DNA from: Desulfurococcales archaeon
GTDB taxonomy: Archaea; Thermoproteota; Thermoprotei_A; Sulfolobales; WANQ01
Assembly (NCBI GenBank): GCA_027030065.1
Contig: JALVFK010000132.1
Location: forward strand, 8,977-72,976
Direction: 5' to 3'
Length of the DNA: 64,000 nt
Shown here: positions 2,701 through 20,881 of the stretch, in pieces
How positions within the stretch are numbered: position 1 is the first letter of the stretch
How the letters are laid out: the number at the start of each line of letters is the position of its first letter
The notes under the pieces: model-generated
The model's database searches: none
What the model was told of the DNA's origin: nothing
Seen by the model: the letters and a program-made list of their open reading frames with translations, nothing else
Position numbers and translations under genes: made by a program

Positions 2701-3327
2701 TTAAAATCCTCCCACTAGGAATAATATCAGTTCTCTTATAGCGTAGTATAATTTCTCGTAGTCTATTGACGGAGGAATCCTAGACTCGTTTCTCCTGAGA
2801 ATCTCAACTACGTCTCTATGAGTATATGGTATATGAATAAACCCTACAACTCTACTAGTATGCAATGAATAGTAAAGCATTAAGTAGAATACATAATTAC
2901 ATAGAAAAGTACCAGCATGATAGGAAACAGTAGCGGGTACATTGTTGTCAAGTAGTACTTTTACAGCCTCCTCTGCATTCAACGTGGACTCTAAAGCAAG
3001 TGGCCCATTTTCTATTATCCTAGTATGTTTTAAGACTATATTATCATTATCGGGGATTCTAGAATGGGCATAGTTTAATGCTATCTTCTCGATACTTACA
3101 ACAGTCCTCTGAGACGATAACCCAAAAGACAATACTATATCGGGTTTAATGTTTTCTAAAAGAAACCGGATAAGCCTCTTCGACCTATTATAAGATACGG
3201 GTAAAACAGCACCATAAACTATTGCTTTCCCAACAACTTCTCCATCAAGTCTAGTTGCAAGTTCTTCAGTAGGGTTCAACGGTTCTTTACCGAATCTCTC
3301 AAAGCCAGTTACAAGAACACGAAACAT
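2701..3327 (-). CDS. pcp: Pyrrolidone-carboxylate peptidase (pyroglutamyl peptidase I)
   Basis: MFRVLVTGFERFG..NPTEEL N-terminus, GTFLCNYVFY (Cys nucleophile context), GFIHIP (His). Length 208 aa. Confidence 0.9.
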   Translation of the reverse strand: MFRVLVTGFERFGKEPLNPTEELATRLDGEVVGKAIVYGAVLPVSYNRSKRLIRFLLENIKPDIVLSFGLSSQRTVVSIEKIALNYAHSRIPDNDNIVLKHTRIIENGPLALESTLNAEEAVKVLLDNNVPATVSYHAGTFLCNYVFYLMLYYSLHTSRVVGFIHIPYTHRDVVEILRRNESRIPPSIDYEKLYYAIRELILFLVGGF

Positions 3328-3417: not shown

Positions 3418-4374
3418 TTGGAGTTCAAGAAATTTCTCATAGAATGGTTTACGGGCATATACGATAGAGTAACGTTATTAGAAAAACTTTGGGGTAGAGA
3501 CTACGGGCACCCTCAGAGAAGTTTCTATTCTACGGAACTACTGGGTAAGCTTGAAGCAATAATAATACGGGATCAAAAATATGGTAGGCCTTGCTTTCTC
3601 TCAGTAAACTATTATACTGGAGAACCAGGTAAACCGGGAGAACCAGTAGCATTAGAGAAAATATTCTTTGACCTAGACTCACCGGAAAATATCGAAAAAG
3701 CTCGAAGAGACGCTAGAAAACTCGTAGACCACTTATCATCTTATTGTAAACCACTAATAGTGTTTAGCGGGGGAAAGGGTTATCACATATACTGTTACCT
3801 TGAAAAACCAGTTGAAGGTTCAAGAGAATATCTTAAAAACGTACTAGAAGCATTGTATGACGTACTAGGGATCCATGGAATGAATCTACCTACACTTGAT
3901 GAACGAGTATTAGGGGATGTTTCAAGATTATCTAGAATACCATACACGCTACACAATAAGACAAGGAGAAAAGCCATACCATTAGACCATGATTTTAAGC
4001 CAATTTCATTGGAGTCTTTTAGCTTAGCCGAATATATTTCAAAGACGCTAAGGCAAAAACATATTTCCGAGGCATTGAGCCAGGCACTAATATTGGAAGA
4101 GCTTAAACCTAAACGCACAAGACGTAAAATTAGGCAACACAGGATTACTTGGCTGAAAATATTTGAGGACAAGAAGATTCTGCAAGAAATATTAGAAGAG
4201 GGTAGGACTTATGGAGAAGAACCAGAGGAAATAGCCAAGCAACTAGTACTATATTTTAGAAACATTGAGATGAAAAATAGAGATGAATGCTTGAAAATAA
4301 TGATTGATTGGTGTAAGAGAACCCGATTACTAAGAGAAGATAAAGTCAGAGAAATAGCGTCAAAGTATTGTTAG
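3418..4374 (+). CDS. Archaeo-eukaryotic primase (AEP) superfamily primase-polymerase-like protein, non-canonical
   Basis: AEP catalytic motifs in order: FFDLD (DxD, nt 3670-3678), FSGGKGYH (nt 3766-3786), RLSRIPYTLHNKT (nt 3934-3963). TTG start. The basic/helical C-terminal third has no recognisable family. Confidence 0.6.
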   Translation: MEFKKFLIEWFTGIYDRVTLLEKLWGRDYGHPQRSFYSTELLGKLEAIIIRDQKYGRPCFLSVNYYTGEPGKPGEPVALEKIFFDLDSPENIEKARRDARKLVDHLSSYCKPLIVFSGGKGYHIYCYLEKPVEGSREYLKNVLEALYDVLGIHGMNLPTLDERVLGDVSRLSRIPYTLHNKTRRKAIPLDHDFKPISLESFSLAEYISKTLRQKHISEALSQALILEELKPKRTRRKIRQHRITWLKIFEDKKILQEILEEGRTYGEEPEEIAKQLVLYFRNIEMKNRDECLKIMIDWCKRTRLLREDKVREIASKYC

Positions 4375-4618: not shown

Positions 4619-5308
4619 ATGGAATTTCAGCCCGGTAGAGTTTCAAGTTATAGAAAGGATCGTAAATACCGTTCAGAAATGAATATTATATCGGATATAC
4701 TGTTGTCTTTTAATAAAAGTGCTAGTGGAGCTATAGGTAAAACGCGGATAATGTATGCAGCAAATCTAAACACAAAAATGCTGTCAGAATATTTAGAGAA
4801 GTTAGTAAAGTATGGTCTAATAATAGAAGAACAAACAAGTAGCAGAGTAGTGTATAGGATAACTCCTAAGGGAATACTAACGTTAATGATATTATTAAAG
4901 CTGAGGGCTCTTCTAGATGTTAAAAGTGAACACAATAATAGAATTGAGCTATTAGAAGCAATAAAAGAATATTTTACGAAAAACACGCGGTCTAGAATAA
5001 TGGAATCATATACTGCTCTGGGAGAATCAGGGCTAATACACTACTTCGACTTAATGATAAAATTAGAAGGCAACGAGTATGCAGCAGTATACATATCTAC
5101 AACCTCAAACAACATATCTTCACTTGAATATTTATGGTTCATACTAGGCCTATTAGATTCGGGAGTTAAAACGGGTATGTTTATAGAAATAGGTTCAACG
5201 GCAAGACTTGAGAAGCGTATGTATGATAGAATAGAGGTATACAAGCTAACACTTCCAAGAAAAGATCAAACTATGGTTAAATCATTTTTAGCTCAGATTA
5301 CTGAGTGA
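4619..5308 (+). CDS. Winged-helix (HTH_45/DUF4364-like) putative transcription regulator with uncharacterised C-terminal domain
   Basis: N-terminal pattern IISDILLSF...GKTRIMYAANLNTKMLSEYLEKLVKYGLI...YRITPKG is typical of small archaeal wHTH proteins. The true start may be ATG 4679 (MNIISDIL...). The C-terminal ~120 aa are unassigned. Confidence 0.45.
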   Translation: MEFQPGRVSSYRKDRKYRSEMNIISDILLSFNKSASGAIGKTRIMYAANLNTKMLSEYLEKLVKYGLIIEEQTSSRVVYRITPKGILTLMILLKLRALLDVKSEHNNRIELLEAIKEYFTKNTRSRIMESYTALGESGLIHYFDLMIKLEGNEYAAVYISTTSNNISSLEYLWFILGLLDSGVKTGMFIEIGSTARLEKRMYDRIEVYKLTLPRKDQTMVKSFLAQITE

Positions 5309-5467: not shown

Positions 5468-5475
5468 TTAATATA
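5468..5475 (+). promoter_or_regulatory. TATA-box-like element (ttaatata) upstream of the first TasA-like gene
   Basis: Lies ~40 nt upstream of ATG 5517 (GTG 5508). Confidence 0.3.
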
Positions 5476-5507
5476 AGCGGGGGTGTAGTTGTATTCAACA
5501 CAAATAG

Positions 5508-6071
5508 GTGTACTACATGAACTACACATCTTCAAAAATAGTAGGAATACTAGCATTAACCATACTATTAGCATCACTAGCGACAGCATACGCAATGTGG
5601 GCAGAGACGCTAAGGATAAACGTAACAATCAATACGGGTGAAGTAGATGTAGAGTGGAGTGATTGGGCATGCAGTGACAGAGGACCAGACCCGCAAGCTC
5701 CAGGTTTCAATAACAGTGAGGGTAAAGACGTAGCATCATGCTATGTAGAACCAGAGATCTACGACGATGAAGGCGATGTAATAAAACTAAACGTAACAAT
5801 AACCAATGCCTATCCAGGATATAATCCAGAGTTCAAATTCCTAGTAGACAATATTGGCACCATACCAGTAAAACTATTAAACTACACAATAGAGGGCGTA
5901 AATACTACAGCATTAAATGTAAGCATGATAATACCTGACGACACCCAGATACACGCAGGAGAAGACCTAACAATCGGTATGGATGTAGAAGTACTACAAG
6001 CAGCTCAAGAGAATGCAACATACACATTCGAAATAACACTAGTGTTCGCGCAGTGGAACGAGGTACCCTAA
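5508..6071 (+). CDS. Secreted TasA/camelysin(M73)-like beta-sandwich protein, paralogue 1
   Basis: Signal segment ending LATAYA|MWAE, then LRINVTINTGEVDVEW, DNIGTIPVKL, and a C-terminal ...ITLVFAQWNEVP. This is the same architecture as B. subtilis TasA (ASGTLDL ... ENNGSL ... FEATQWNG). The likely real start is ATG 5517. Confidence 0.65.
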   Translation: MYYMNYTSSKIVGILALTILLASLATAYAMWAETLRINVTINTGEVDVEWSDWACSDRGPDPQAPGFNNSEGKDVASCYVEPEIYDDEGDVIKLNVTITNAYPGYNPEFKFLVDNIGTIPVKLLNYTIEGVNTTALNVSMIIPDDTQIHAGEDLTIGMDVEVLQAAQENATYTFEITLVFAQWNEVP

Positions 6072-6085
6072 CGATAACCTAAGAC

Positions 6086-6754
6086 GTGGTGTGTACTAAC
6101 ATGAACTTTCAGGAAAAGATAATGGCGCCAATAGCGATAGTAGCACTACTATTGCTAGTAACAGTATCGTATGCAATGTGGTATGGTGAGCTAAAAATCA
6201 ATGGCAACGTACAGACAGGTGAGCTTGACTGGGAATTCGTCCCGAACACGGTAATACAGCTAGATACATGTGACTTCAATGTACCAGACACTAATGTGCC
6301 GCCAGGAAATAATAGTGAAGGTAAGGATGTAGGATGTACTGATGTTCAACTAGTGGATACTGATGGAGATGGAGACTATGATGCATTGAATATAACAATG
6401 CATAACGTCTACCCATACTATTACGAACACATAGCATTCAAAGTACATAATGATGGAACAATACCCCTAAAGATATGGCGTGTAATAATAGACGGAAAAG
6501 AATACTATGAACTTAACGAACACGTACTACACACAGGAGTACCCTTAGACCTAGATGGAGATGGAGAAAATGATACGATGATATGGTGGGGCGATAACTT
6601 TGGAGTACAATTACATCCGTGCGAGAGCGCTGATATAAGCTTAGACATAACAATATTGCAGCCAGCACCAGAAAACGCTACACTACACATGCTGATACAG
6701 TTCCAAGCAATAGCGTGGAACGAATATGAGAGTGCACTACCAACATCACCGTAA
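6086..6754 (+). CDS. Secreted TasA/camelysin(M73)-like beta-sandwich protein, paralogue 2
   Basis: TVSYA|MWYGELKINGNVQTGELDWEF, NNSEGKDV (shared with paralogue 1), HNDGTIPLKIW, and a C-terminal LIQFQAIAWNEYE. Alternative start at ATG 6101. Confidence 0.65.
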   Translation: MVCTNMNFQEKIMAPIAIVALLLLVTVSYAMWYGELKINGNVQTGELDWEFVPNTVIQLDTCDFNVPDTNVPPGNNSEGKDVGCTDVQLVDTDGDGDYDALNITMHNVYPYYYEHIAFKVHNDGTIPLKIWRVIIDGKEYYELNEHVLHTGVPLDLDGDGENDTMIWWGDNFGVQLHPCESADISLDITILQPAPENATLHMLIQFQAIAWNEYESALPTSP

Positions 6755-7033
6755 GAATACAACTAGGTCATCAAAACAAAATAGATAAAATAGAATAATA
6801 TGGTAGGAGGCCGAGCAATTTTTAGCTCCGTGTCTACAAAATATTTTTTCAAATACTAGTCCCATAATTTTGTTAATAATTGTATTGCAATCATAGTAAT
6901 AGAGTATAGTCTTGAACGTTAATATACTATGCCGTAAACTGTATTTTTGTTCTATAGAAATTCTCCCACACCCCCATATACTCTAACTACACTACTCATA
7001 TATAGCGTAGAGTAAAAGCGGTGCAATAAAGAA

Positions 7034-8272
7034 GTGAATACAAATAATACAAAGTATCGGGTAATAACGGCATTATTATTGGTCTTAGCTAGTAAATTAT
7101 TACTATATGCTGGTTTGCTTAAGGGGTATTCCGCCTATGTGGTGCAGCCTTTTCTATGGTTTCTAGCCTTCTTTATACTTTTTGATATAGTTGACAAAAA
7201 GAGTGCAACTCTGTATATATCACTATTACTTGCATCAATAAATATAGGAGCATTAATGGTTATAGGTATTGTAAGTGGTTGGGGATTAAACTCCTATGAC
7301 ACAAGCATATATGGTATAGTCTTAAATATACTACGCATAACGCCCTATATTTTAGGGCTAGAATTTCTAAGAGCAGCTATATTCCAGCGTTTAAGAAGTT
7401 ATAAATCACTAGACCGTAGCATAGTCTTATTTGCAGTATTGTTTACAGTTATAATGGTGTCTTTATCTAAATTTATTCTATCCTTTAGTGATGAAACAAT
7501 AATGTTAAAGCTAATTATATCGTCACTACTACCAGTGTTCTCGTTGAACTTGTTTCTATCATATCTATTACTTGGAGGAGGCGTTTGGAATACCGTATCG
7601 TTCTCGCTAACAACATACGTGTTTACATTTATTGCACCTGTTTTACCAAATATTCCATGGTATATTGAGGGTATAGCGTATACAGCAATATACTTGATCC
7701 TAATAATGTTCACAATACTGGTATTAGGCGAAGTTGGGATACCGAGAATAGAGTTAAAGAAAAACACGTTAACCAAGAAGATAATGGGTATTGCATCGTA
7801 TCTATCAATTCTAGTAATCCTACTACTAATATTCATAGGTGGTTTCAAACCCTTTGTTATTGCTTCGGGGAGTATGGAGCCCAATATAAATATTGGAGAC
7901 ATAGTATTGGTACAACCTACAGATATAAATGAAATAAAAGTTGGCAACATTGTAGCCTACCATGTAAGCAATAGAATACTAGTGCATAGAGTAGTAGAAG
8001 TCCTCAACAATAATGGCAAGATATATCTTAAAACTAAAGGTGATGCAAACCTTGACGCTGACCCAGGACTTGTAACTGAGAGAGCTGTTCTGGGGAAAAT
8101 AGCTTTCACTATACCGCGGGTAGGGTTTATAGTATTGGGGTTCCAGTACGTGATGGTCAATTACCCGTTTCTTCTACCAGCTTTAATAATAGGCTCGCTT
8201 CTACTCTATGTTATCCTAGCCCTAGTGGGCAAAGATATTAGAAAATACATGGCATGGAGATGTGGTATATGA
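7034..8272 (+). CDS. ER/archaeal-type signal peptidase I (S26B, SipW-like) fused to an N-terminal ~270-aa polytopic membrane domain
   Basis: C-terminal domain: ASGSMEPNINIGDIVLV (Ser), ILVHRVVEV (His), KTKGDANLDAD. The N-terminal part carries about 8 hydrophobic helices. Confidence 0.8.
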   Translation: MNTNNTKYRVITALLLVLASKLLLYAGLLKGYSAYVVQPFLWFLAFFILFDIVDKKSATLYISLLLASINIGALMVIGIVSGWGLNSYDTSIYGIVLNILRITPYILGLEFLRAAIFQRLRSYKSLDRSIVLFAVLFTVIMVSLSKFILSFSDETIMLKLIISSLLPVFSLNLFLSYLLLGGGVWNTVSFSLTTYVFTFIAPVLPNIPWYIEGIAYTAIYLILIMFTILVLGEVGIPRIELKKNTLTKKIMGIASYLSILVILLLIFIGGFKPFVIASGSMEPNINIGDIVLVQPTDINEIKVGNIVAYHVSNRILVHRVVEVLNNNGKIYLKTKGDANLDADPGLVTERAVLGKIAFTIPRVGFIVLGFQYVMVNYPFLLPALIIGSLLLYVILALVGKDIRKYMAWRCGI

Positions 8273-9291
8273 AAAAAATCTATAGAAATACATTGTTTGC
8301 TGTATTAGTGGCTTCACTTATCATGGGTGTTCCACTAGCTATAATATCACATAGTACTAGCCCATACGATGTTGTGGAGAAGAATCTGGTACAAGTAATC
8401 TATAACACTAATTATGAGTACCTAGCTCATGTTAATAAGTCAATAATATATAATAACAGAGATATTGTTGGAATGGACGATACCCTCTACATACCGCTAA
8501 CGAAAACATTAGAATTCAATATGACTTTCAACATTATTAGTAAATTAGACAAAATTATCGGAAACAAGGGTATAATAGACTTAAAGATAAAGTTAACGGA
8601 ACCCGACGGCTGGAGCATATTGTTGAACAATGAAACATATATCATAGATTCACCCAATACAACGGTGAGATTCTACATAAATGTAACCGAGCTTAGAGAC
8701 ATTATAGCGAGTATTCGCAAGGAGATAGGACTATCATCGTTAGAGTACAATATTGAAGTTGACCCAACTATAAAGGTGAGTACAAAACTTAGCGATAGGA
8801 TTGTAGACAGAATAATTGAGCCAAAACTAGTACTCTCACTTGATTTTCAAAGAAACAAGATACTATATGATGACTTGAATTTCACAGACACTTACAGGCA
8901 TGCTGAAAAACAGATAATATCGTCAACTTTCTCGTTGCCAGGATTATTTTCTCTAACGATTCAGAACCTCAGATATATCAGCTATACGCTGGTTTTAGCT
9001 GGTGTGGTATCAGCAGTACTTATCATAATAACGCGCGAGAAGGAGTTGACCAGTGTTATAGATGAATTTTTACGCAAATATGATAATGTGATAGTAAAGG
9101 CTTCAGCTGTAACCTCTAGTAGTAGAAAGGTATTAGTGAAAGACTTTAGGGAGCTTTTAAGAATATCGAGACTTCTAGGAAAGCCTATAGTGTACTATAA
9201 GGAAGGAGAATCACATATATTTACAGTAATAGATGCTGAGACACTCTACATTCTCTCGTTGGGCGAAGACGGTAAACCATTATCAGACTAA
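8269..9291 (+). CDS. Membrane-anchored extracellular protein, DUF5305-like (tentative)
   Basis: ATGA overlap with the peptidase gene (ATG 8269; the ORF track gives 8254). It has an N-terminal TM, a ~230-aa extracytoplasmic part, a second TM (YTLVLAGVVSAVLIII) and a short cytoplasmic tail. The family assignment is from memory of SipW-neighbourhood genes. Confidence 0.4.
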   Translation: MKKIYRNTLFAVLVASLIMGVPLAIISHSTSPYDVVEKNLVQVIYNTNYEYLAHVNKSIIYNNRDIVGMDDTLYIPLTKTLEFNMTFNIISKLDKIIGNKGIIDLKIKLTEPDGWSILLNNETYIIDSPNTTVRFYINVTELRDIIASIRKEIGLSSLEYNIEVDPTIKVSTKLSDRIVDRIIEPKLVLSLDFQRNKILYDDLNFTDTYRHAEKQIISSTFSLPGLFSLTIQNLRYISYTLVLAGVVSAVLIIITREKELTSVIDEFLRKYDNVIVKASAVTSSSRKVLVKDFRELLRISRLLGKPIVYYKEGESHIFTVIDAETLYILSLGEDGKPLSD

Positions 9292-9389: not shown

Positions 9390-10301
9390 GTGGTGTATAG
9401 TGACATGGATGTAACAAGTATTGCGAGAATGCAAATAGATCCGGGATCAATAATAGGGTTGTTGTTCTGGATAATATTATTCATAGTATTGTTTTCGCCA
9501 TCTCTACAATTCCATTCGTTAAAGTCGGCTCGTCTTAGACTAATAGGTGCTATAGAGAGAAAGTATGGGTTCCGCCTAATAACACTAATACATAGGCAAG
9601 AAAAAGTAGGTTTCTTCGGAATACCAGTCTACAGATTCATCGATATAGACGACTCGGAGGCCGTTATAAGAGCTATTAGAACAACACCACCTGATAGGCC
9701 CATAGCATTAGTCCTCCACACACCCGGAGGACTTGTTCTTGCAGCAGCACAGATAGCCATGGCCTTAAAGAAGCATCCAGCAAAGAAAATAGTAATAGTC
9801 CCGCACTATGCTATGAGTGGTGGTACGCTAATCTCTCTAGCAGCCGATGAAATATGGATGAGCCCTGAAGCAGTACTCGGGCCCCTTGACCCCCAGTTAA
9901 GCATGGGTCAAGGGATAATGGCTCCAGCACCCTCGATATTAAAGGTGGCTAAAATAAAAGGTGATAAAGCATCAGACCACTTACTAGTAATGGCTGATGT
10001 AGCTGAGAAGGCTATAAAAGAAGTACAAGAATTCATTATAAGATTACTCGAAGACAAGATGCCTAAAGAGAAGGCAGAGGAACTGGCAAGACTTCTAACA
10101 GAGGGTAAGTGGACCCATGACTACCCAATAACAGCTGAAGATGCCATTAAGATGGGGTTGCCAGTAAAGACGGAGATTCCACCCGAAATATACGAGTTAA
10201 TGGAACTATACCCGCAAGCACCAGTAAATAGACCTGGTGTAGAATATTTGCCATATCCTGTAATACCTCATCCAAGTCATCGCCAGGTGAGTCGACAGTA
10301 A
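9390..10301 (+). CDS. Membrane-bound ClpP-class serine protease (SDH/DUF114 family)
   Basis: N-terminal TM, then LITLIHRQE...RPIALVLHTPGGLVLAAAQIA...HYAMSGGTLISLAADEI. This pattern is typical of the serine dehydrogenase proteinase family. Confidence 0.7.
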   Translation: MVYSDMDVTSIARMQIDPGSIIGLLFWIILFIVLFSPSLQFHSLKSARLRLIGAIERKYGFRLITLIHRQEKVGFFGIPVYRFIDIDDSEAVIRAIRTTPPDRPIALVLHTPGGLVLAAAQIAMALKKHPAKKIVIVPHYAMSGGTLISLAADEIWMSPEAVLGPLDPQLSMGQGIMAPAPSILKVAKIKGDKASDHLLVMADVAEKAIKEVQEFIIRLLEDKMPKEKAEELARLLTEGKWTHDYPITAEDAIKMGLPVKTEIPPEIYELMELYPQAPVNRPGVEYLPYPVIPHPSHRQVSRQ

Positions 10302-10432: not shown

Positions 10433-11806
10433 TTGATGACAACGATACCGGGGCTTCAAGCGGAATGGGATATTCTTGTGAAGATAGTTGTTAGTTTCCT
10501 AGCGGGGGCTCTAATAGGGTTGGAGAGAGAGAAGGCGAAGCGTACTATCAGTAAGGAAGAATCTGAGTATGGTACGCCTCCTGGTGTCCGTAGTTTTGGT
10601 TTTATGGCCTTGCTTGGGTCTTTAACTATAACTATCCCTGTCTTTGCTTCAAAGACTATTGAGGGTTTTGGGCAGACTATAGCGGTATCGATTTCTCTTG
10701 GGATGAGTATTTTATCCATACTAGTCGTCGGGATCTATAGTTATTATAGATTGATCATTCTACGTGAGCCTGGAATAACAACTCTTGTTGCATTGGCATT
10801 AGCTTATGCTATAGGTGTTGGTATAGGATTAGGGTTATTTCTTGAAAGCATTGCGGCAAGTGTTCTGATAACATTTATGCTCGCTGTAAAACTACGTATT
10901 GAGGAAGCCGTAAGGATATTAACGTATGAGGAACTGTTATCGGCTCTAGAGATAGGGATAATAGTATTTCTCCTAGGCCCCTTCCTAGCAGTTGATATAA
11001 CCGACCCCTGGCTACATGTGATTAACCTAAGAGTTCTCTACGGCTTCTTTGTGATAATTCTTATCCTATCGTATATCGGTTATATTCTTGTAAAGGCCTT
11101 AGGACCGAGAGCTCTTACATACTTTGCTTTCTTTGGAGGCTTAGTTCATAGCGAAGCAACAGTTATTAGTATAACTAGGCTCGGTTTAAAGATAAAGAGA
11201 GAAGATGATATAATTAAGGGTTCTATAGCGGCTATAACAGCTATGGTTCTAAGAAATCTCTTCCTAATACTGGGCTTAACCGTTCTAATAGCTCCGCCTG
11301 AAATTCTTGGAATGGAGCTATTACTGACTGTAACGGGGTTCCTCTTAACAATTCTGGTTGGAGTATTCATTCTATCCTTCCGCAAGATGAGTAAGGGAGA
11401 GAAGCTAGAAACACTGCAAACTGGTCTAACCATAGAGAAGCCGGTAAGCTATTCAATAGCGTTAAAGGCTTTACTTGTATTCATTGTGGTTCTATTGGCT
11501 ACAACCATAGCATCAAATATTGCAGGTGAAACGGGAGTCCTTATATCAAGTATTGCTGGTGGTCTTGTTAGTGCGGAAGCAACAATCTTCACTGCTAGTA
11601 CGCTTCAAATTACTGGTAGGATAAGTAGTCAGATAGCCTTGGCTTCAGCCATATTAGCGACTTCTTCAGCGGTACTCAACAAGCTAATATATATGAGGGT
11701 GGCTGGTGCTTCGGGTTCCCTTCTACGGAAACTAGTTTTATCAATAGTATTAATGACTATACCATTGATAATAACTGCTCTAGTACTATTAGGAATAAGC
11801 ATATAA
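10433..11806 (+). CDS. MgtC/SapB-family membrane protein with DUF4010-like C-terminal half
   Basis: LVKIVVSFLAGALIGLEREKAKR is the MgtC N-terminal signature. The 457-aa protein is polytopic. Confidence 0.65.
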   Translation: MMTTIPGLQAEWDILVKIVVSFLAGALIGLEREKAKRTISKEESEYGTPPGVRSFGFMALLGSLTITIPVFASKTIEGFGQTIAVSISLGMSILSILVVGIYSYYRLIILREPGITTLVALALAYAIGVGIGLGLFLESIAASVLITFMLAVKLRIEEAVRILTYEELLSALEIGIIVFLLGPFLAVDITDPWLHVINLRVLYGFFVIILILSYIGYILVKALGPRALTYFAFFGGLVHSEATVISITRLGLKIKREDDIIKGSIAAITAMVLRNLFLILGLTVLIAPPEILGMELLLTVTGFLLTILVGVFILSFRKMSKGEKLETLQTGLTIEKPVSYSIALKALLVFIVVLLATTIASNIAGETGVLISSIAGGLVSAEATIFTASTLQITGRISSQIALASAILATSSAVLNKLIYMRVAGASGSLLRKLVLSIVLMTIPLIITALVLLGISI

Positions 11807-12882: not shown

Positions 12883-14619
12883 GTGAAGGACAAGTGGATA
12901 ATATACGCCTACGTATCACTAGTAGCCTCATGGCTTATAGTAAGTATAGTAAAGATGTATCCATCAGTAATACTGGAAATATATGAGCTAGCATCAGCCG
13001 AAGAATATAGTTACATCTATGCCTTAGCAATAGTCATATTATTTACCTTTATCAAACGAATAAATACAATAGAACCACCAAGGACAAACTCTATAATCTA
13101 TGGTATATCTCTCGCATCACTAGCCCTAACATCCTCACTATACTTCTACAGCATATCATTCGGAATAGCGGAATGGTACTGGATAAGAATAATAGCCCTA
13201 GCCTTCTGGATAATAGGAATAACACTACTAGCACTAGGACTAGACAATGCATCAAAACTAAAAATACCACTACTCTCACTATTCCTACTAATACCAATAC
13301 CAAGAACAATAATGGATTCAACAGCAATAGTCTTATCAAAAATACTCGGCAGAATAGCCGCCCCCATAGTAGGAGCAAAAATAAGCGAGTCAGCAACAGG
13401 ACTAACAGTACTAAGCGTGATGGGGCCAAACGGCAAACCAATACACTTCGAAATAGCCGTAGGCTGTAGCGGAATAGTAAGCCTAACAAGCATAATAGCC
13501 GTACTCCCAATAATAGCCGACATACTAGCAACAACCCATACAACACTAAGAAGAAAAATATATGCACTAATAGTATCAGTAACATCACTCACAATAATAA
13601 TGCTATTCGGAAACTTACTAAGGATCATAGGAATACTATTGGCCGCAAAATATATGGGACACCAAGCGGCAATGGAATTCTTCCACTCCACACCAAGCAT
13701 AATATTTGCAATAGTTGCAAGCATACTTGTAGTTCTCATATTGAATAAAATACTATCGAGATACAAAAGCAAACCAATTGAAAACATACATAATTATTCT
13801 AGTATTAGAGTAGAAGATAAGCATCCATATAAAAATATGGCATTATCGCTAATACTAACAGTTCTAGTAGTCGTATCACTATACAACGTCAATATAATAA
13901 ACCTAGTTCGTCCAGGAGAGCAACATGTATCACAAAATAACATAGTTAACGTTAACACATTGTTTCAGAATATATCCTTTTATATAGCACACAATACTAG
14001 TATAAAGTTTAAGGGATACGTGGAGAGAAAGGATTGGGAAAGACTGCTTGGATTACCGCTGATACTGGTAATGCAAGTTCAATTCCATAAAAAGAACATG
14101 CTTATGTATATAGAGGCTTCAGGGAGTCCTCACTTATTCCATAGCTGGCCAGTATGTTTAGCCTACCAGGGGTATAGCATTGATAAATCATGGATAGATA
14201 TTATAAAAGTAGACAATAAAACTATAGAAATAATATTTGTAACGTATAGAAGAGGAAATATACTCTACATTATGGGATATACTAAGATAGCGGTAATGGC
14301 AGATTACGGCGGTATACTAGGTCCCGCGTACTATAAAATAACGTTATTATCATCATCTTCTCTAAGAAACTATAACGCAATATATGATTACTACGGGATA
14401 ATTTTAGATGCGATGAAAACATATATAGAGTTTCTAGATAATAAGACAAGTATAATAACTGTTGAACCCGAAAAAGAGTATCATCTACTAGAAGTAAATC
14501 CAATAATTATTGCACTAGTATCATCCATTGTAGTTAACATAGTGTTATTTACAATATTATTATATTATGCGGCTAAAACGGGGGAGTTCTCTCTAAAAAG
14601 AGTTAGGGGTAGTCAGTGA
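12883..14619 (+). CDS. Archaeosortase/exosortase-family transpeptidase fused to an EpsI-like C-terminal domain
   Basis: EIAVGCSGIVSL (Cys motif), FGNLLRIIG (Arg motif), EFFHSTPS (His motif) within ~8 TM helices. C-terminal part: LFHSWPVCLAYQGYSI, resembling EpsI (H-x-P-x-x-C-L-x-x-x-G). GTG start. Confidence 0.7.
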   Translation: MKDKWIIYAYVSLVASWLIVSIVKMYPSVILEIYELASAEEYSYIYALAIVILFTFIKRINTIEPPRTNSIIYGISLASLALTSSLYFYSISFGIAEWYWIRIIALAFWIIGITLLALGLDNASKLKIPLLSLFLLIPIPRTIMDSTAIVLSKILGRIAAPIVGAKISESATGLTVLSVMGPNGKPIHFEIAVGCSGIVSLTSIIAVLPIIADILATTHTTLRRKIYALIVSVTSLTIIMLFGNLLRIIGILLAAKYMGHQAAMEFFHSTPSIIFAIVASILVVLILNKILSRYKSKPIENIHNYSSIRVEDKHPYKNMALSLILTVLVVVSLYNVNIINLVRPGEQHVSQNNIVNVNTLFQNISFYIAHNTSIKFKGYVERKDWERLLGLPLILVMQVQFHKKNMLMYIEASGSPHLFHSWPVCLAYQGYSIDKSWIDIIKVDNKTIEIIFVTYRRGNILYIMGYTKIAVMADYGGILGPAYYKITLLSSSSLRNYNAIYDYYGIILDAMKTYIEFLDNKTSIITVEPEKEYHLLEVNPIIIALVSSIVVNIVLFTILLYYAAKTGEFSLKRVRGSQ

Positions 14620-15350
14620 TGTCTTTGCGTAGAATATACTTTATTAGATATACACTGATGTTATCGGTGTATATTTTATTATTTATTTTAGTAGCCTTTA
14701 ACTTTGAAATAGAACTTAATAGAATGCTTTTCATTTATGGCACACTAGCAATAGTTCTAATTAATATAAGGATTTTGCATCCTAGGCTAGGAAACTTTAT
14801 TGTCCTCCCCATTATATCCTATACTATAACGTTATTATTAGTTTATGTAGGGATTATAGGATTTAGCATCTCTCTCGGAGTAATTTATGCTATACTTTTC
14901 ACTGGTATGATATTATTGAATGGATTGCCCGCTGGCCTTGATAATATGTTGAAAAAGATATTTGAGACAGGAAAAGTAGATGCAGAATTACCGTTTATGT
15001 GGATGTTATTGTTTATTGCCTATATGTTCTCGTTTCTTTCGGAAGCCAGTATGATTACAGATTACGTGTATTATTTAATATACGTTATTGCTGGCCCGTT
15101 AGTTGAGGGACTTCTTATAAGCTCCGACTACTATAGTAAGGCTATGAAAGGGAATAATTGTATCTGTTCAAGAATATTATTTATTAATGCCTTATATATT
15201 ACACTAATATTTTATCCTAACCTATTATACATGATTATCAGCATTATCGGTAATTTATCTAAAATTATATTAGGTTTTAAGAAGGGTTTAGTTATCGACT
15301 ATGTTGCTAGAACACTAATAGTAACAAAAACATTATTAGGTGTCCTTTAG
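14616..15350 (+). CDS. Polytopic membrane protein, unknown family
   Basis: 244-aa hydrophobic ORF. Its start overlaps the archaeosortase stop (GTGATG). Confidence 0.5.
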   Translation: MMSLRRIYFIRYTLMLSVYILLFILVAFNFEIELNRMLFIYGTLAIVLINIRILHPRLGNFIVLPIISYTITLLLVYVGIIGFSISLGVIYAILFTGMILLNGLPAGLDNMLKKIFETGKVDAELPFMWMLLFIAYMFSFLSEASMITDYVYYLIYVIAGPLVEGLLISSDYYSKAMKGNNCICSRILFINALYITLIFYPNLLYMIISIIGNLSKIILGFKKGLVIDYVARTLIVTKTLLGVL

Positions 15351-15352
15351 AC

Positions 15353-16060
15353 ATGAATAGAACTCTAATGGTGCTAGCGATAAATGTACTGTTTGGAAGT
15401 ATTATATCGTTAATTCTATCAATTACTGTAATTAATTCAACAGAACTACGAATAGCTAGTGTTTCATTTCTCCTAGTAGGTATGGTTATGTTACCAATAG
15501 GCTTAGGTGTTGAAAGCGAAATTAACAGAATACGGCAAATAGAAGCAGAAGCATTTAAGCAGAATATTAAAAGAATACTAGAAGAATTCCTAATATACGA
15601 TAAGAGGATGTATATTTGTCCGTCAGCAATGTGTAAAACAACCTCGATTCTACTACCAATAGGTGAAGTAAATGTTAAATACATGGTACCTGCAAATAGG
15701 TTCATTACCGTTTATAAGGATAAACTCATGATAATGCTTGAAACTCCAGGGCAGAGAATGTTAAGAAAACTATTAGAGGAAGTAAGAGAAACAATTGATT
15801 TAAATACATTAAACAGTCTAGTCAAAGATTTATCAACAGTATTATTGGGATCAACAGTTGAAATATCTATAGCGAAGCAAGGTAATAGATATAGTATATC
15901 CGTTAATAAAGTAGATAGTAAAGTAGGAGAGTTTGAGTCTTGGATCATTTTAGCAGGTCTCATCGGATCTATAGTAGCTGAAGCATTAAGAAAACCAATT
16001 CTACTGGATAATTACGTATATGAGCATGGTACGTTAAGTATGGAGTTGATCGAGATATGA
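15353..16060 (+). CDS. Membrane-anchored protein (2 N-terminal TM plus ~170-aa soluble domain), unknown family
   Basis: 235-aa ORF starting 2 nt after the previous stop. No recognisable motif. Confidence 0.45.
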   Translation: MNRTLMVLAINVLFGSIISLILSITVINSTELRIASVSFLLVGMVMLPIGLGVESEINRIRQIEAEAFKQNIKRILEEFLIYDKRMYICPSAMCKTTSILLPIGEVNVKYMVPANRFITVYKDKLMIMLETPGQRMLRKLLEEVRETIDLNTLNSLVKDLSTVLLGSTVEISIAKQGNRYSISVNKVDSKVGEFESWIILAGLIGSIVAEALRKPILLDNYVYEHGTLSMELIEI

Positions 16061-16338
16061 AGGTCTTAGAAACTTCTCTGAAAGAGTATAAACTACTGAT
16101 ATATTATTCAATAATAGCTGCTATGATAAATATAGGGTTATCTTTATTTGGTGAATGGCGAGTAGATATATATGTTGCACTACAAATACTAGCATTCATA
16201 ATGTTACGTTTTACTATGGCCCCGTTTCACCCGACGGTAGAAAAATATCTCGGTAAGATAAGTACCATACTATTAATTGTTTTAATAGTAATAATTATGT
16301 TCAGAGTACTTACTGTGGTGGGAATACTTGGTATCTAG
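16057..16338 (+). CDS. Small membrane protein (3 TM)
   Basis: 93-aa hydrophobic ORF with an ATGA overlap with the upstream gene. Confidence 0.4.
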   Translation: MKVLETSLKEYKLLIYYSIIAAMINIGLSLFGEWRVDIYVALQILAFIMLRFTMAPFHPTVEKYLGKISTILLIVLIVIIMFRVLTVVGILGI

Positions 16339-18409
16339 AAGTGTTGTTATAATAATGATTGTAGTACTAATAGTGGCTATTTCCGATGCTCCAATTAGTA
16401 TGGCAACACTAATAGAAAACCCTCATGTGGATCCAGATAAGATAGAGGAAAGACTTGATCCGATAAGCCTTGTAATAATATACATTAATGTACTAAGAGG
16501 TTTAAGCGACCTAAATTTAAACGAATCGCTAATCCATGTAGATATTCTAAAAAATGCTTCAGTACCATACGATATACGATTAGTAATGAATAAATTAAAC
16601 GAACTCATTAGCGAACTTGCGTTGTTAATAAATAATACAGTATACGAACTTAATAAAACAGAAGAATATTTAGAAGAAAATAATATAGTAGAAGCAAATA
16701 AATCAATAAGTAAGGCAGCACTCTATCTATTTAAGGCTAATGCTACACTTAACGAACTTCTTTCGGCGTGGTACGAGTTTAAAAGACATCTATCAATGTA
16801 TGTTGTACATGAATACAGACCTAGGTTCTTAGAATATACTGTTCAACTAGAACTATTATTTAAGAGATTAGATAGGCTACTTAATAAGCTATATGAATTA
16901 AAACAAGATCTAGAGACAAAAATTGTAGTGTCTACGATAGTGTCTCCGAACAAAATTAACACTTCTATAACTATATATTATTATAATCAGAGTATACACC
17001 CGGGTGGAATATTAGTATTAAACGGTTCTCTCATAAGTGAGGAAGGCATACCCTTAGCAAATAAAAGGCTGAGAATATATGTATATGTACAAAATAAAAG
17101 ATTAATAGAAAAAGAAGTCTTCACTAATAGCCAAGGAATATTCTATGCTAACATAACAATGCCACAGACTTATTATTTATGGAGGGCTATGAAGCCAGGT
17201 CTCGTTAAATTTAATTCGTCTATCTACGTAGTGTACACACCTCTAACTCAAGATAATTACTCTGGATCTCATGTAATATTAAACACCACGTATTACTACT
17301 ATAGGAGCAAGTTAAAGGTTATAGGTAAGACCACAGCCTATGTAGGCTCAAATCTAACATATAAAATTAAGATACTGCCTCCTAATGTAGCAATTAATAG
17401 GACATTGAGGATTTTCCTAGATAGTAAAAACATAGCTAATATATCACTACCATTAGCTAGTAGTTATCGTACAATAAAGATAAAGTTACCGTCAAATATA
17501 TCAATAGGCCAACACTTCATAAATATAACATTACTCGGTTATAAACAGTTTTCACTCGATTCTATAAGACTTCCAATAATAGTTCAACATATACCGATAT
17601 ATGTTAGTGTAAGTTATCCTCAAACAATAGTCTACCCTATACAGAGGCTACGAATCAATGGTAGTATCACGGACTATTATGGTGAGCCTGTTGTAAATGC
17701 TACTATTATCGTGGGTGATGAGAGAGCATTTACTAACATTAACGGTTCTTTTAATATGTCTATTTCTATTACAAGCATCAATATTATTGGCGGTCTAGTA
17801 GTGTTAAATTTAACAGTAAAACCAGTAGAGCCCTGGTATCCCGTAGTAAATAAGACATTAAGGATTAACTATATTAATCTATACACAATAGTTGGTATAA
17901 CTTCATATATAGCCATTGCTATAATTATTGCTCCGACACTCGTAAAGATAAATATTTACAAGAGGTCAAGGGTAGAGAAAAAAGCAATAAAGATAAGCAA
18001 AATGCTAAGAGGCCCTAAACTAGCAACCATAGGCGAGGAAGAAAAAATACCGGGTAATATTCTGGAAAGAATGCTAGCTAAAAGAAAGGCAAGCATATCA
18101 ATTAGTGAGACAGCTCTAAAAATGATTAAACTAGAATATAGGTTAAAGAGAAATATCATTGTAGATAAACTACTAGAAATGCTCTTAGTACTAGGTACAA
18201 AATACTCAAAGCCTTTATCTTCGGAGACGTTGAGAGAATATGTATTAAGGATAAGTAGAGATATGCCAAGACAAATCGCTGAAAAAGTAAGCCTCATAAT
18301 AACCCTTGTTGAAAAAGAACTATACTCTAAGACAGAACTTGCTCTAGATGAAAAAAGAAAATTAATGACGCTGATAGAGGAGGTTATAGACTATGTACGT
18401 AGAATATAA
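16328..18409 (+). CDS. Large surface protein: signal/anchor, coiled-coil region, beta-rich repeats, TM helix, DUF4129-like cytoplasmic tail
   Basis: N-terminal hydrophobic segment and many N-x-S/T sequons. ITDYYGEPVVNATIIVGDERAFTNINGSF is a carboxypeptidase-regulatory-like strand pattern. TM helix IVGITSYIAIAIIIAPTLV. Tail ...ETLREYVLRISRDMPRQIAEKVSLIITLVEKELYS resembles DUF4129. Confidence 0.5.
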   Translation: MVSRSVVIIMIVVLIVAISDAPISMATLIENPHVDPDKIEERLDPISLVIIYINVLRGLSDLNLNESLIHVDILKNASVPYDIRLVMNKLNELISELALLINNTVYELNKTEEYLEENNIVEANKSISKAALYLFKANATLNELLSAWYEFKRHLSMYVVHEYRPRFLEYTVQLELLFKRLDRLLNKLYELKQDLETKIVVSTIVSPNKINTSITIYYYNQSIHPGGILVLNGSLISEEGIPLANKRLRIYVYVQNKRLIEKEVFTNSQGIFYANITMPQTYYLWRAMKPGLVKFNSSIYVVYTPLTQDNYSGSHVILNTTYYYYRSKLKVIGKTTAYVGSNLTYKIKILPPNVAINRTLRIFLDSKNIANISLPLASSYRTIKIKLPSNISIGQHFINITLLGYKQFSLDSIRLPIIVQHIPIYVSVSYPQTIVYPIQRLRINGSITDYYGEPVVNATIIVGDERAFTNINGSFNMSISITSINIIGGLVVLNLTVKPVEPWYPVVNKTLRINYINLYTIVGITSYIAIAIIIAPTLVKINIYKRSRVEKKAIKISKMLRGPKLATIGEEEKIPGNILERMLAKRKASISISETALKMIKLEYRLKRNIIVDKLLEMLLVLGTKYSKPLSSETLREYVLRISRDMPRQIAEKVSLIITLVEKELYSKTELALDEKRKLMTLIEEVIDYVRRI

Positions 18410-19301
18410 ATGGGTTCTCTTGTTATCAATCGTACTATTATCTCTGGCATCATATCTCTTAATCTATTATCCATCAACAATGAATTTCTATGTGGAGAAT
18501 CCGTTCTGGAATGGTTATAAAGATTTTGTCAACTTATTTAATGCAACACCTATCCTAACAAGGTTTGACTTTGTAAGAATACTTAACCATATATCTTTGA
18601 GCAATCTATCATCTAAAAGCAAAGTATTAGTTACGATATCCTATGAGAACTATACAGATCAAGAAGTAAAACTCCTAAATAAATTTATAATTAATGGTGG
18701 TACATTAATAGTATTAAACGATTTCTCATCAGCAGGAAATCAGTTATTAAATAAATTAGACATAGGAGTATATTTCAACATCTCTGGTATCCTAATAGAT
18801 CCTTTATACTATTATAAGGATCCTCACTTACCAAAAGTAGAAGCAAAAGAAAATAATACAACATACACTATAATTCTCAATTATGCGTCTATAATTGAAG
18901 GAGATATAAGTAGAAACGAAATACTCATACGCTCTTCGAGATTTTCTTATTTCGATGTGGATAATAGTAGTTCGTGGAGTCCGGAGGAACCCACAGGTCC
19001 TTTCATAGTAGGTGTTGTTAAGAAATTGGGTGCTGGAAAAATAATTATAATAAGTGACCCAAGCATTTGGTTAAATGCAATGCTTAATATTGGAGATAAT
19101 TATGTTTTTGCTAAAACGTTACTAGACGGAAAAACAATATATCTAGATCAGGTACATATACCTAAGAGTACACAAGAACAATTGAGAGAAAGAATAATAT
19201 ATCTTATATCGCTGCTAAACTCTTATGGTATAGCCCCATTAATAATAGCAGTGTTTACTCTAATTATCTATAGGCTATTTTTAGGTGTAAAACAGCGATG
19301 A
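18393..19301 (+). CDS. DUF4350-like protein (N- and C-terminal TM anchors)
   Basis: LLNKFIINGGTLIVLNDFSSAGNQLL and KIIIISDPSIWLNAMLNIGDNYVFAKTLL match the DUF4350 pattern seen in MoxR-associated clusters. Confidence 0.55.
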   Translation: MYVEYKWVLLLSIVLLSLASYLLIYYPSTMNFYVENPFWNGYKDFVNLFNATPILTRFDFVRILNHISLSNLSSKSKVLVTISYENYTDQEVKLLNKFIINGGTLIVLNDFSSAGNQLLNKLDIGVYFNISGILIDPLYYYKDPHLPKVEAKENNTTYTIILNYASIIEGDISRNEILIRSSRFSYFDVDNSSSWSPEEPTGPFIVGVVKKLGAGKIIIISDPSIWLNAMLNIGDNYVFAKTLLDGKTIYLDQVHIPKSTQEQLRERIIYLISLLNSYGIAPLIIAVFTLIIYRLFLGVKQR

Positions 19302-20881
19302 TACTTGACCCGAAATCACTTAGTAGAATAGCAGTATCTTCTATAATATTAATTATATTATCATTAGTAGTATACATATCGGTAACTAAGAATATTCTAG
19401 AAAACCTATCTATTATATCAATAGTAATATTACTAATATTTTACTTAAAAATAAATCATCCCTCATATGCTGGTTTAATACTCCATGCAATAATGTTGTT
19501 TTCTGTGGGATTAATTCCTATAGGATACCTAATGCCCTATCTACTATTATCGTTGTTTATGTCTATATCATTCATTCTCTATGTTTTTGCGTTTTCGAAT
19601 ACATTGACAATAGATATAAATAAATGGCCTACATCCTCCCTAATAATATTGATAACTAGTTTTCTTGGATTTATACTGGCGTTCATTAATATTCGGGTTA
19701 CTATTACATCAATATTATTGTTGTCAGCGATTTTGGTAGTAGGTAGTATAATATATTTAGGATTGAATAGAGGGATACAAGTAATAAAATCTTTTCAAGT
19801 AAGTATGCTTGAAGGAGAAAGAGTTGAAAAAGATATATTGTTTTCAAATAAATTAATAATACCTATCCACATTATAACAAATGTTAGGAATGGTAATGGT
19901 GTAAGCATAAAGATACCAAGAATAAGAGTAGAACCTGGAGAAACTGTTAGAATACCAGTTATAATAGATGCCTCGGAAACCGGTATTTATGATATATATC
20001 TAGACTTCTTTATCGAGGATATATTTCATCTAACAAGGCTTTATAAAAGTGTAAAAGCGACCATAAAAATAATGCCCAAGATAAAAACGGCCCTTCTGGC
20101 AGCACACAAGCTCCTTGCCCGCATACCTAGCGAGATATTGGAGCATGCTGATACAAAGAGCATAGGGGAAGTAGAATTAGTGCCCAAGATTTTATCTTCG
20201 AGAAGAGGAGAATACTATGGTGCACGTCAATATGTTCCAGGTGATGATCTAAGCCAGATACACTGGAAAAAATCATTGTCTAAGGGTATACTAATATCTA
20301 AAGAGATGAAGAAAACTCATTCTTATTCCATAGCTATACTTGTTGATCTAACAAGCTCTAGTAATAGAGACTTTACAGAAATACTTTACAAGACGCTAAC
20401 ATCTCTAATTCTAATATCACTCAAAGACCCTTTACGTGTAGTAACATTAGCGCTATATGATATGGAAAACATATACCTTGTTGTTAGAAACTATTCTGCA
20501 GCCAAAGCTCTAAATAGTTTAACAAAAATAGTTGAAGAGGGAGGAATAGGAACTCATAGAGTATACAAGAAGGTCTTAGATAAGCCAATGATTTTGCCCA
20601 TATTATCATCAAATAATGAAAAACTAAAGGCGTTGTACGAGGTTTTAGTAGATAGTATTAGAGAGAAATATGTGTGGAAAATAATTGCTGAAGTACTGAG
20701 AGGTTTTGAAGGACGAAATATCCAGATAATACATGGTCAAAGCAGTATTAGTGATCTATATTATTATGTTAAGTTATTGTTGCGAAAGAAGGGGTATATA
20801 CTAGAAGAACCAGTTGAGATAAGTCCTAGATCCTTATATGAAAAAGCAGTAACCGAACCAATAGGATTACTTGCCCACTAA
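19298..20881 (+). CDS. DUF58-family protein with N-terminal multi-TM domain
   Basis: GEYYGARQYVPGDDLSQIHWKKSLSKGILISKE is the DUF58 signature, followed by a VWA-like region (IAILVDLTSS). Confidence 0.75.
   Translation: MILDPKSLSRIAVSSIILIILSLVVYISVTKNILENLSIISIVILLIFYLKINHPSYAGLILHAIMLFSVGLIPIGYLMPYLLLSLFMSISFILYVFAFSNTLTIDINKWPTSSLIILITSFLGFILAFINIRVTITSILLLSAILVVGSIIYLGLNRGIQVIKSFQVSMLEGERVEKDILFSNKLIIPIHIITNVRNGNGVSIKIPRIRVEPGETVRIPVIIDASETGIYDIYLDFFIEDIFHLTRLYKSVKATIKIMPKIKTALLAAHKLLARIPSEILEHADTKSIGEVELVPKILSSRRGEYYGARQYVPGDDLSQIHWKKSLSKGILISKEMKKTHSYSIAILVDLTSSSNRDFTEILYKTLTSLILISLKDPLRVVTLALYDMENIYLVVRNYSAAKALNSLTKIVEEGGIGTHRVYKKVLDKPMILPILSSNNEKLKALYEVLVDSIREKYVWKIIAEVLRGFEGRNIQIIHGQSSISDLYYYVKLLLRKKGYILEEPVEISPRSLYEKAVTEPIGLLAH

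Follow-up and report, generated by a model that had tools for sequence, protein, structure and literature searches.

A probable abpX-type fiber locus with two AbpX-like subunits, a polytopic signal peptidase and a DUF5305 protein in a Desulfurococcales archaeon

AbpX-type fibers are emerging as widespread, cross-domain biofilm-matrix proteins that form chaperone-free, heat-stable, calcium-triggered gels. AbpX, known since late 2024–2025, is placed in the TasA superfamily by published HHsearch and CLANS analyses, and the marks of its family include an isoelectric point (pI) of ~4, ~15% Asp+Glu and Ca2+ at the strand-groove interface (bioRxiv 10.64898/2026.01.04.697558). For the Pyrodictium abyssi protein, the reference values are pI ~4.0 and 14.6% Asp+Glu, and the Ca2+ ligands are E4, D18, D46, D48, E52 and E142 (bioRxiv 10.64898/2026.01.04.697558). 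Archaeal abpX loci, as described in the same January 2026 preprint with a Desulfurococcales example, encode a major and a minor subunit, a signal peptidase I (SPase I) with 10 transmembrane (TM) helices, a DUF5305 protein and a transcription factor (bioRxiv 10.64898/2026.01.04.697558). Here we analyze a 64,000-nt stretch of contig JALVFK010000132.1 from an uncultured, heat-loving Desulfurococcales archaeon (the window, to which all positions refer), in which an earlier note, made from the sequence alone, had recognized four genes as a TasA/SipW-like secreted-fiber locus. The region is very probably an abpX-type locus, encoding a TasA-superfamily extracellular fiber built by donor-strand complementation. 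It is a clean example of the commoner, fuller form of such loci, with major and minor subunits, a ten-TM peptidase, DUF5305 and a regulator, and as such confirms existing knowledge more than it extends it.

All genes of the locus are on the + strand, and its features are as follows:

4619–5308, +: HTH_45/Sso10a-family winged-helix regulator (PF14947 and NF053610 matches)
5468–5516, +: candidate promoter region with 5′ leader for the subunit genes (TATA-like element TTAATATA, 5468–5475; GGTG box, 5507–5510)
5517–6071, +: P1, AbpX-like major fiber subunit, 184-aa precursor (AbpX homology, orthologs)
6101–6754, +: P2, AbpX-like minor subunit, 217-aa precursor (paralogy to P1, orthologs)
6755–7033, +: 279-bp spacer separating P2 from the peptidase gene (sequence read, tblastn)
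7034–8272, +: endoplasmic reticulum (ER)/archaeal-type signal peptidase I, 412 aa (TIGR02228, PF10502)
8269–9291, +: DUF5305 two-TM membrane protein, 340 aa (PF17231)

The four genes from P1 to DUF5305, read as co-oriented open reading frames (ORFs) at 5508–6071, 6086–6754, 7034–8272 and 8254–9291, and the motifs that had been listed for them are all readable in the translations. We refined the starts of P1, P2 and the DUF5305 gene using ortholog lengths and GGTG boxes 6–10 nt upstream. Since P1 orthologs are 184 aa long and GTG 5508 sits within a GGTG Shine-Dalgarno-like box (5507–5510), P1 most likely starts at ATG 5517 (184 aa) and not at GTG 5508; an exact-sequence look-up of the 187-aa, GTG-start form of P1 returned no record, and a 184-aa relative (P0001) was taken instead. 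For P2, the most likely start is ATG 6101 (217 aa), which a GGTG box precedes at 6088–6091, and the DUF5305 gene start is placed at ATG 8269, which gives the 340 aa seen in relatives. This ATG (8269–8271) overlaps the TGA of the peptidase gene (8270–8272), so that the ATGA coupling proposed for the two genes is present, at 8269–8272. The TATA-like element upstream of P1 is a putative promoter element of the subunit genes.

P1 has a predicted signal peptide of 26 residues (1–26) that ends in ATAYA and is followed by MWAETLRINVTINTGEVDVEW; its translation also contains the motifs NNSEGKDV, DNIGTIPVK and FAQWNE. The mature protein, of 158 aa, begins with MWAETLRINVTINTGEVDV, the donor strand. When P1 was compared with all PDB chain sequences using phmmer, it matched the AbpX fiber of P. 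abyssi (9sj2_C, E = 6.5e-7). The match strengthened to E = 7.6e-13 with a 68-member P1-family profile, positions 27–165 of 184 aligning with AbpX residues 2–141, and to E = 7.5e-22 with a broad 96-member profile. AbpX of P. abyssi (fiber 9sj2; self-complemented monomer 9rhp) is the only significant PDB relative of P1. Among proteins whose accessions we confirmed by look-up, P1 is 57% identical to A0A2R7Y7S4 of Zestosphaera tikiterensis, the “major AbpX pilin”, and 63% identical to the “AbpX-like” WP_055409108.1 of Pyrodictium delaneyi. P2 is 55% identical to Z. tikiterensis A0A2R7Y7T0, the “AbpX-like minor fibril subunit” (accession likewise confirmed). We therefore take P1 as the major and P2 as the minor subunit of an abpX-type locus.

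The hallmark residues of AbpX are conserved in P1. If P1 is cut after AYA, its mature N terminus reads M1-W2-A3-E4-T5-L6-R7-I8-N9-V10-T11-I12...D18, and hmmalign places W2, E4, L6, I8, V10, I12 and D18 on AbpX W2, E4, L6, L8, A10, I12 and D18. W2 is invariant (68/68 orthologs), and 65/68 have Glu or Asp at position 4. Position −1 of the cleavage motif is Ala in all 68 orthologs and position −3 is Ala in 59/68; cleavage would follow this A-x-A (here AYA). In the same alignment, the acidic cluster D57, D58, E59 and D61 of P1 falls on the AbpX D46/D48 loop, and the counterpart of AbpX D18 is kept in both P1 and P2; the AbpX E142 region is not alignable. Mature P1 has a pI of 4.05 and 17.1% Asp+Glu. 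An AlphaFold2 (AF2) model of P1 (predicted local distance difference test [pLDDT] score 89.2) contains a confident eight-strand β core, and the segment between signal helix and core is predicted to be unstructured, at lower confidence. An unstructured N-terminal extension is also reported for the AbpX monomer (bioRxiv 10.64898/2026.01.04.697558).

P2 has the donor strand too. Its predicted signal peptide (residues 1–25) ends in VSYA and is followed by MWYGELKINGNVQTGELDWEF, the mature protein begins with MWYGELKINGNVQTGELDW, and its other motifs are NNSEGKDV, HNDGTIPLK and AIAWNE. P1 and P2 are 34% identical (BLASTP, E = 1e-30), and the two genes are paralogs, as had been proposed. Alone, P2 matches AbpX in the PDB at E = 0.022, and a P2-family profile does so at E = 4.7e-6. 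The mature N terminus reads M1-W2-Y-G-E-L6-K-I8-N-G-N-V12, with Trp2 present in 66/66 orthologs; the pI is 4.05 and Asp+Glu make up 17.2%. P2 contains two Asp-rich loops, DTDGDGDYD and LDLDGDGENDT, in which D86, D88, D90, D154 and D158 are invariant among the 66 orthologs. Asp occupies all three AbpX loop-ligand positions (D63, D65 and D69), inside DTDGDGDYD.

The NNSEGKDV motif that the earlier note had listed as a shared element is present in both window proteins, but in P2 it is, among the orthologs compared, confined to the clade of the window: 6/66 P2 orthologs have EGKDV, versus 53/68 P1 orthologs. A recent gene conversion between P1 and P2 as the source of the shared motif was considered and rejected, because the longest DNA word that they share is 11 nt and out of frame. 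We also observed that the Cys-flanked loop of P2 (window 6260–6331) has 24 residues in the window's clade versus 35 in most orthologs, and that it ends in a P1-like NNSEGKDV. The W-Y-G-E-L donor strand of P2 (window 6176–6184, mature residues 1–5) is likewise found in this clade only, the usual form being W-S-E/D-T-L. A near-invariant Cys pair brackets the NNSEGKDV loop (C52/C75 in P1, window 5670–5741; C57/C79 in P2), and its conservation in both subunit families suggests a disulfide-stapled insertion. AbpX of P. abyssi has an 8-residue gap within the region that is Cys-bracketed in P1 and P2. Mature P1 contains seven N-x-S/T sequons and P2 four, so glycosylation of both is likely.

The third gene encodes a signal peptidase of the ER/archaeal Ser-His type, as had been claimed. 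It carries SGSMEP (residues 278–283), VHRV (317–320) and KGDAN (335–339) and exceeds the cutoffs of TIGR02228, sigpep_I_arch (83.3 versus 51.85 bits), and PF10502 (29.9 versus 22.9 bits). With the SipW equivalog model NF046067 it scores 68.2 bits, far under the cutoff of 190. S280, H318, D337 and D343 are invariant across 21 peptidase homologs (22–95% identity), and the best Foldseek matches of the catalytic domain are human SEC11C (7p2q_A, E = 3.7e-5) and SEC11A (7p2p_A, E = 1.1e-4), at 26–28% identity; the class assignment follows from the TIGR02228 score, the invariant residues and these structural matches.

The membrane part of the peptidase is long. In the AF2 model (pLDDT 73, predicted template modeling [pTM] score 0.72), helices at 3–25, 32–49, 61–81, 92–119, 123–141, 154–182, 184–200, 209–231 and 243–268 precede the catalytic domain. 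The β domain is followed by helices at 364–376 and 380–398 and a short one at 402–409, where hydropathy supports a single hydrophobic segment (~372–403). The predicted layout is thus nine TM helices, a catalytic domain (~270–360) and a C-terminal TM segment. Peptidases associated with AbpX have ten TM helices, compared with the two typical of prokaryotic SPase I (bioRxiv 10.64898/2026.01.04.697558). What had been called a peptidase fusion is indeed a long extra region, a polytopic N-terminal extension of ~270 residues (window 7034–7840), but no recognizable domain is fused, as the extension has no Pfam or PDB relative. G78, E110, R113, P167 and P205 within it are nonetheless invariant in homologs that are only 22–30% identical, and the conserved charges in this membrane domain suggest a function beyond anchoring.

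The DUF5305 protein matches PF17231 over residues 135–333 (46.6 bits, cutoff 29). Its two hydrophobic segments (11–35 and 239–263, numbered on the 345-aa ORF) bear out the two-TM architecture previously assigned to it, and the predicted topology, TM/ectodomain/TM/cytoplasmic domain, agrees with the published description. DUF5305 proteins have been proposed to be accessory subunits of the peptidase (bioRxiv 10.64898/2026.01.04.697558; PMC12337348), and by analogy the window protein is presumed to have this role. The product of the upstream gene matches PF14947 HTH_45 (E = 7.7e-16, 58.3 bits) and NF053610 Sso10a_fam (61.5 bits, cutoff 60) and is probably a locus-specific transcription factor.

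Is this gene set conserved? We scanned one genome per species, which yielded 80 loci whose ORFs were typed with hidden Markov models (HMMs) built for this analysis, and counted genes in those archaeal loci, 43 after removal of redundancy, in which at least 4.5 kb of sequence follows the major gene. The peptidase is present in all 43 archaeal loci, DUF5305 in 42, and in 41 the major gene has a second (minor-type) AbpX-like gene right after it; all four genes occur together in 41/43, the co-conservation that a genuine locus would be expected to show. An HTH_45 regulator is nearby in 33/43, and in 19 loci it directly precedes the other genes in the same orientation. The closest loci, at 96–98% identity, are from uncultured Desulfurococcales/Thermoprotei metagenome-assembled genomes (MAGs). 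Farther afield, loci from Bacillota, Dethiobacteria, Heliobacterium, a Deltaproteobacteria MAG, Archaeoglobus and Thermoplasmata also have tandem AbpX-like genes with the peptidase and DUF5305 pair after them. An exhaustive profile search returned 2,810 cluster representatives at E ≤ 0.001, and some longer relatives carry adhesin-type domains (SdrD_B, SpaA, β-helix) C-terminal to the AbpX-like domain.

Exactly two AbpX-like genes are present in 32/43 loci, and a third, usually longer (~200–470 aa) and in most cases placed after the minor subunit and before the peptidase, in 10/43. This third gene, the “tip” of the preprint, is found in Zestosphaera and Ignisphaera. The 279-bp spacer of the window, which is AT-rich, contains T-runs and a TATA-like element and may serve as both terminator and promoter, is the site that the “tip” gene occupies in some relatives. 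Queried by tblastn with the “tip” genes from Zestosphaera (316 aa) and Ignisphaera (418 aa), the window yielded matches to P1 and P2 only, so no third-gene remnant remains there; tblastn and HMMs together revealed no “tip” gene or remnant in the spacer or in the whole window, whose layout is therefore the commoner one. Within the Desulfurococcales, it is the two-subunit, four-gene form that predominates, not the “tip”-containing form of the preprint.

Several loci, given here with our labels, depart from the usual arrangement. Peptidase and DUF5305 are apparently fused in L067 (766 aa) and L069 (779 aa), neither of which has a separate SPase ORF, and enlarged DUF5305 ORFs lie beside a separate SPase ORF in L084 (517 aa) and L085 (548 aa). 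In L015, the peptidase and DUF5305 pair is upstream of the subunit genes. L085, from the Deltaproteobacteria MAG, has six tandem AbpX-like genes.

How does the window locus compare with the AbpX loci described so far (P. abyssi 9sj2/9rhp; Zestosphaera; Nat Commun 2025, PMC12518558)? The mature x-W-x-E-T-L-x-hydrophobic...TG..D sequence, the pI of ~4 with an acidic loop at the presumed Ca2+ site, and the set of major subunit, minor subunit, ~10-TM SPase I, DUF5305 and helix-turn-helix (HTH) regulator are common to both. There are also differences. The Zestosphaera and Ignisphaera loci have the third gene that the window lacks. The regulator of the window is upstream on the same strand, not downstream on the opposite strand. 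The P2 donor strand, W-Y-G-E-L, has Gly where AbpX has the Ca2+-binding Glu4. The locus of P. abyssi AbpX is minimal, and the protein does not have the 8-residue NNSEGK insertion seen in the window proteins.

Some of our observations weigh against the abpX-type assignment. The Ca2+ ligands of P1 are ambiguous in the alignment, as AbpX E52 falls on Ile63, with Asp61 nearby. In P2, position 4 is Gly (as in 3/66 orthologs, compared with Glu or Asp in 47/66) and the Glu is at position 5. When the PDB was searched with the P1 model in Foldseek, zero matches reached E ≤ 0.001, in a library copy that contained no AbpX entries; the P1 scores are probably lowered by the signal-peptide helix and the flexible strand. 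The models PF12389 (TasA/camelysin), TIGR04088 (SipW-cognate signal), TIGR04090 (BsaA) and NF046066 (TasA) match neither P1 nor P2 at E ≤ 1. Finally, experiments so far concern only AbpX of P. abyssi, with its minimal locus, and the full locus type is known from genes alone. Across Pfam and NCBIfam as a whole, the only match of either subunit at E ≤ 1 is that of P1 to MCR_beta_N, which is at chance level and under the threshold (E = 0.046, 13.8 bits versus 22.2).

Could P1 and P2 instead be secreted or surface β-sandwich proteins that do not polymerize (S-layer-associated, adhesin-like or metal-binding) and are merely processed by the peptidase? We consider this quite improbable. The fold search with P1 did return mainly generic Ig-like and β-sandwich proteins with weak scores, relatives give weak CARDB, Ig-like and choice-of-anchor matches, and there are no filament observations for this lineage so far. 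But the best and only significant solved homolog is a fiber subunit; the mature N terminus of P1 matches its donor strand position by position in the alignment, and the monomer model of P1 leaves this N-terminal strand unpaired. W2 is invariant in the 68 members of the P1 family, the 66 of the P2 family and 96 distant relatives. Tandem paralogs with the same strand, and relatives with C-terminal adhesin domains, fit a polymer with tip and minor subunits.

The description as TasA/SipW-like was right about a secreted donor-strand system within the TasA superfamily; the closest family, though, is AbpX and neither AbpA nor TasA proper. As is proposed for the window locus, B. subtilis tapA-sipW-tasA encodes a fiber subunit polymerized via N-terminal donor-strand exchange, and both include a gene for a dedicated ER-type (Ser/His) signal peptidase. 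In contrast to tapA-sipW-tasA, the window contains no TapA-like gene and its peptidase has nine TM helices before the catalytic domain; it also has a DUF5305 partner, which the B. subtilis operon as described does not. No counterpart of tapA exists, as there is no TapA/AbpB-like gene and the second secreted protein is a paralog of P1. The locus would function like tapA-sipW-tasA but lies outside the TasA family proper.

That the region is a true TasA/camelysin (PF12389) operon, with the paralogs in the roles of TasA and TapA and the peptidase as the SipW ortholog, is very unlikely. PF12389 is, together with CARDB, the most frequent Pfam match among distant relatives, and one Archaeoglobus relative passes its gathering threshold (25.8 versus 22.5 bits), but these matches are weak (3/68 and 4/96) and confined to the signal peptide and donor strand. 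TIGR04088, the SipW-cognate signal model, matches 18/68 relatives but, like PF12389, gives no match to P1 or P2, so that among the families that the earlier note had expected HMMs to detect, only DUF5305 was found. The SipW model does give the peptidase 68 bits, a score well short of the cutoff of 190, and the peptidase has about ten TM helices, not two; P2 is a P1 paralog, not a TapA-like β-sandwich. The TasA fiber (8aur) is present in the Foldseek list for the P1 model, in 9th place (E = 0.017, TMq 0.36) amid generic β-sandwiches and chaperone-usher pilins, and the broad family profile matches it at E = 0.32 only, versus 7.5e-22 for AbpX. We rejected membership of P1 and P2 in TasA proper, since neither PF12389, TIGR04088, TIGR04090 and NF046066 nor the TafE model matched at E ≤ 1; as a claim of membership, the TasA/camelysin operon is largely refuted by these sequence and profile tests. 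As the direct link to TasA is weak (PF12389 fails, the profile reaches E = 0.32 with 8aur, and the fiber ranks 9th in Foldseek), it is mainly the published HHsearch and CLANS analyses, together with weak transitive matches, that support placement in the superfamily.

Two other systems share parts of the organization. Haloarchaeal Tat-fimbriae (PMC12337348) have, like the window, paralogous major and minor pilins, a peptidase (TafD), DUF5305 (TafG) and a regulator (TafB), and a role in biofilms has been proposed for them, as it might be for the window locus. The window subunits, however, match neither the TafE model (NF052522) nor any Tafi structure in the PDB, their signal peptides are of Sec type, not Tat, and TafC/TafF-type anchor or tip genes are missing. 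The Pyrobaculum calidifontis AbpA/AbpB system (PMC9245690) provides a TasA-superfamily donor-strand filament from the Thermoproteota with A-x-A SPase I cleavage, as is likely for the window. Unlike the window locus, with its peptidase and DUF5305, the archaeal bundling pili loci have no dedicated peptidase (PMC9245690); AbpA has no detected sequence similarity to the window subunits, and no AbpB (TapA-like) gene is present in the window.

That P1 and P2 belong to another archaeal donor-strand family (Pyrobaculum AbpA, Sulfolobus threads [Saci_0406], cannulae [CanA/CanX] or Tat-fimbriae [TafA/TafE]) has next to no probability: these families are in the same superfamily (bioRxiv 10.64898/2026.01.04.697558), Tafi loci share the accessory genes (PMC12337348) and the TafE model weakly matches 2/68 relatives (E = 0.06), but searches of PDB chain sequences with sequences and profiles returned AbpX only, with no AbpA, thread, cannula or Tafi subunit at E ≤ 10, P1 and P2 lack a TafE match, their N-regions (MNYTSSK and MNFQEK) lack a twin-arginine motif, and AbpA (PMC9245690) and cannula loci lack a dedicated peptidase. 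Tested by sequence, membership in these families was rejected, and the window locus is not an AbpA, thread, cannula or Tafi system.

The abpX-type reading also bears on how new the gene set is. The set had been thought undescribed for this lineage, which is so experimentally; bioinformatically, it has been known since the January 2026 preprint, which includes a Desulfurococcales example, and the proteins there are 55–57% identical to those of the window.

If the locus is of the abpX type, how might the fiber be assembled? P1 and P2, with their Sec-type signal peptides, would be exported via Sec, and the dedicated peptidase (Ser280/His318 dyad), probably together with the co-translated DUF5305 protein, would cut after A-x-A to expose Met1-Trp2. 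The freed, amphipathic N-terminal strand of P1, with W2, L6, I8, V10 and I12 as key residues and E4 breaking its hydrophobic face, would be unstructured in the monomer. It could then enter the open β-sheet groove of the next subunit and complete its fold, with Trp2 acting as a clamp, and the outcome would be a head-to-tail polymer that requires no chaperone or usher. By analogy with P. abyssi AbpX, Ca2+ may bind at the strand-groove interface, coordinated by E4 of one subunit and D18, D57, D58, E59 and D61 of the next, and its binding would trigger or lock polymerization. Given the acidic surface (pI ~4), fibers may bundle into a matrix once charge is screened at high ionic strength. P2 would be a less abundant but conserved partner that shares this donor strand and has additional Asp-rich loops, presumably Ca2+-binding; it probably enters the fiber as an initiator, adaptor or cross-linker. 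Expression of the locus is probably controlled by the upstream HTH_45 protein.

A more speculative proposal, which we consider unlikely, is that the nine-helix domain and DUF5305 form a platform in the membrane where cleavage of the signal peptide is tied to an ordered polymerization attached to the cell, as a functional analog of ushers or sortases in a system currently described as chaperone-free. In this scheme P2, which in this lineage lacks Glu4, would be a calcium-independent initiator or anchor that is loaded first.

Several neighboring genes deserve mention. The locus is followed immediately, in the same orientation, by genes for an SDH-type ClpP-like serine proteinase (9390–10301, +; PF01972, E = 2.5e-115) and an MgtC/DUF4010 membrane protein (10433–11806, +). 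We considered both as members of the locus and rejected them: they are kept in close relatives and one Pyrodictiaceae MAG, and since the protease and its neighbor occur in only 6/43 archaeal loci, they are probably not part of the fiber system. Upstream, a primase-polymerase-like protein (3418–4374, +) scores 26.7 bits with DNA_primase_S (cutoff 26.8) and weakly matches the LigD PrimPol and the CRISPR-associated PrimPol model NF040561. Its gene adjoins that of a pyroglutamyl peptidase (2701–3327, −; PF01470, E = 7.6e-48), and the pair is syntenic with the locus in two close relatives (L002 and L008).

Farther downstream, 12883–14619 (+) encodes a polytopic protein of the exosortase/archaeosortase family (578 aa; PF09721, E = 7e-18), whose gene has a syntenic counterpart in the close relative L002. 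Next comes a low-GC block (14616–20881, 31–32% versus 36–40% in the flanks) of co-oriented genes that are mostly membrane or unknown, among them polytopic ORFs of 244 and 235 aa without a family, a 693-aa secreted-looking protein (weak CarboxypepD_reg), a DUF4350 protein and a weak DUF58 match. The exosortase gene and this block may constitute a second, unrelated cell-surface system, possibly an island. In an Rfam scan of the whole 64-kb window, zero families reached the gathering score, so positions 1–64000 contain no tRNA, rRNA or other known RNA genes. The GC content rises to as much as 0.42 at 44–50 kb of the window.

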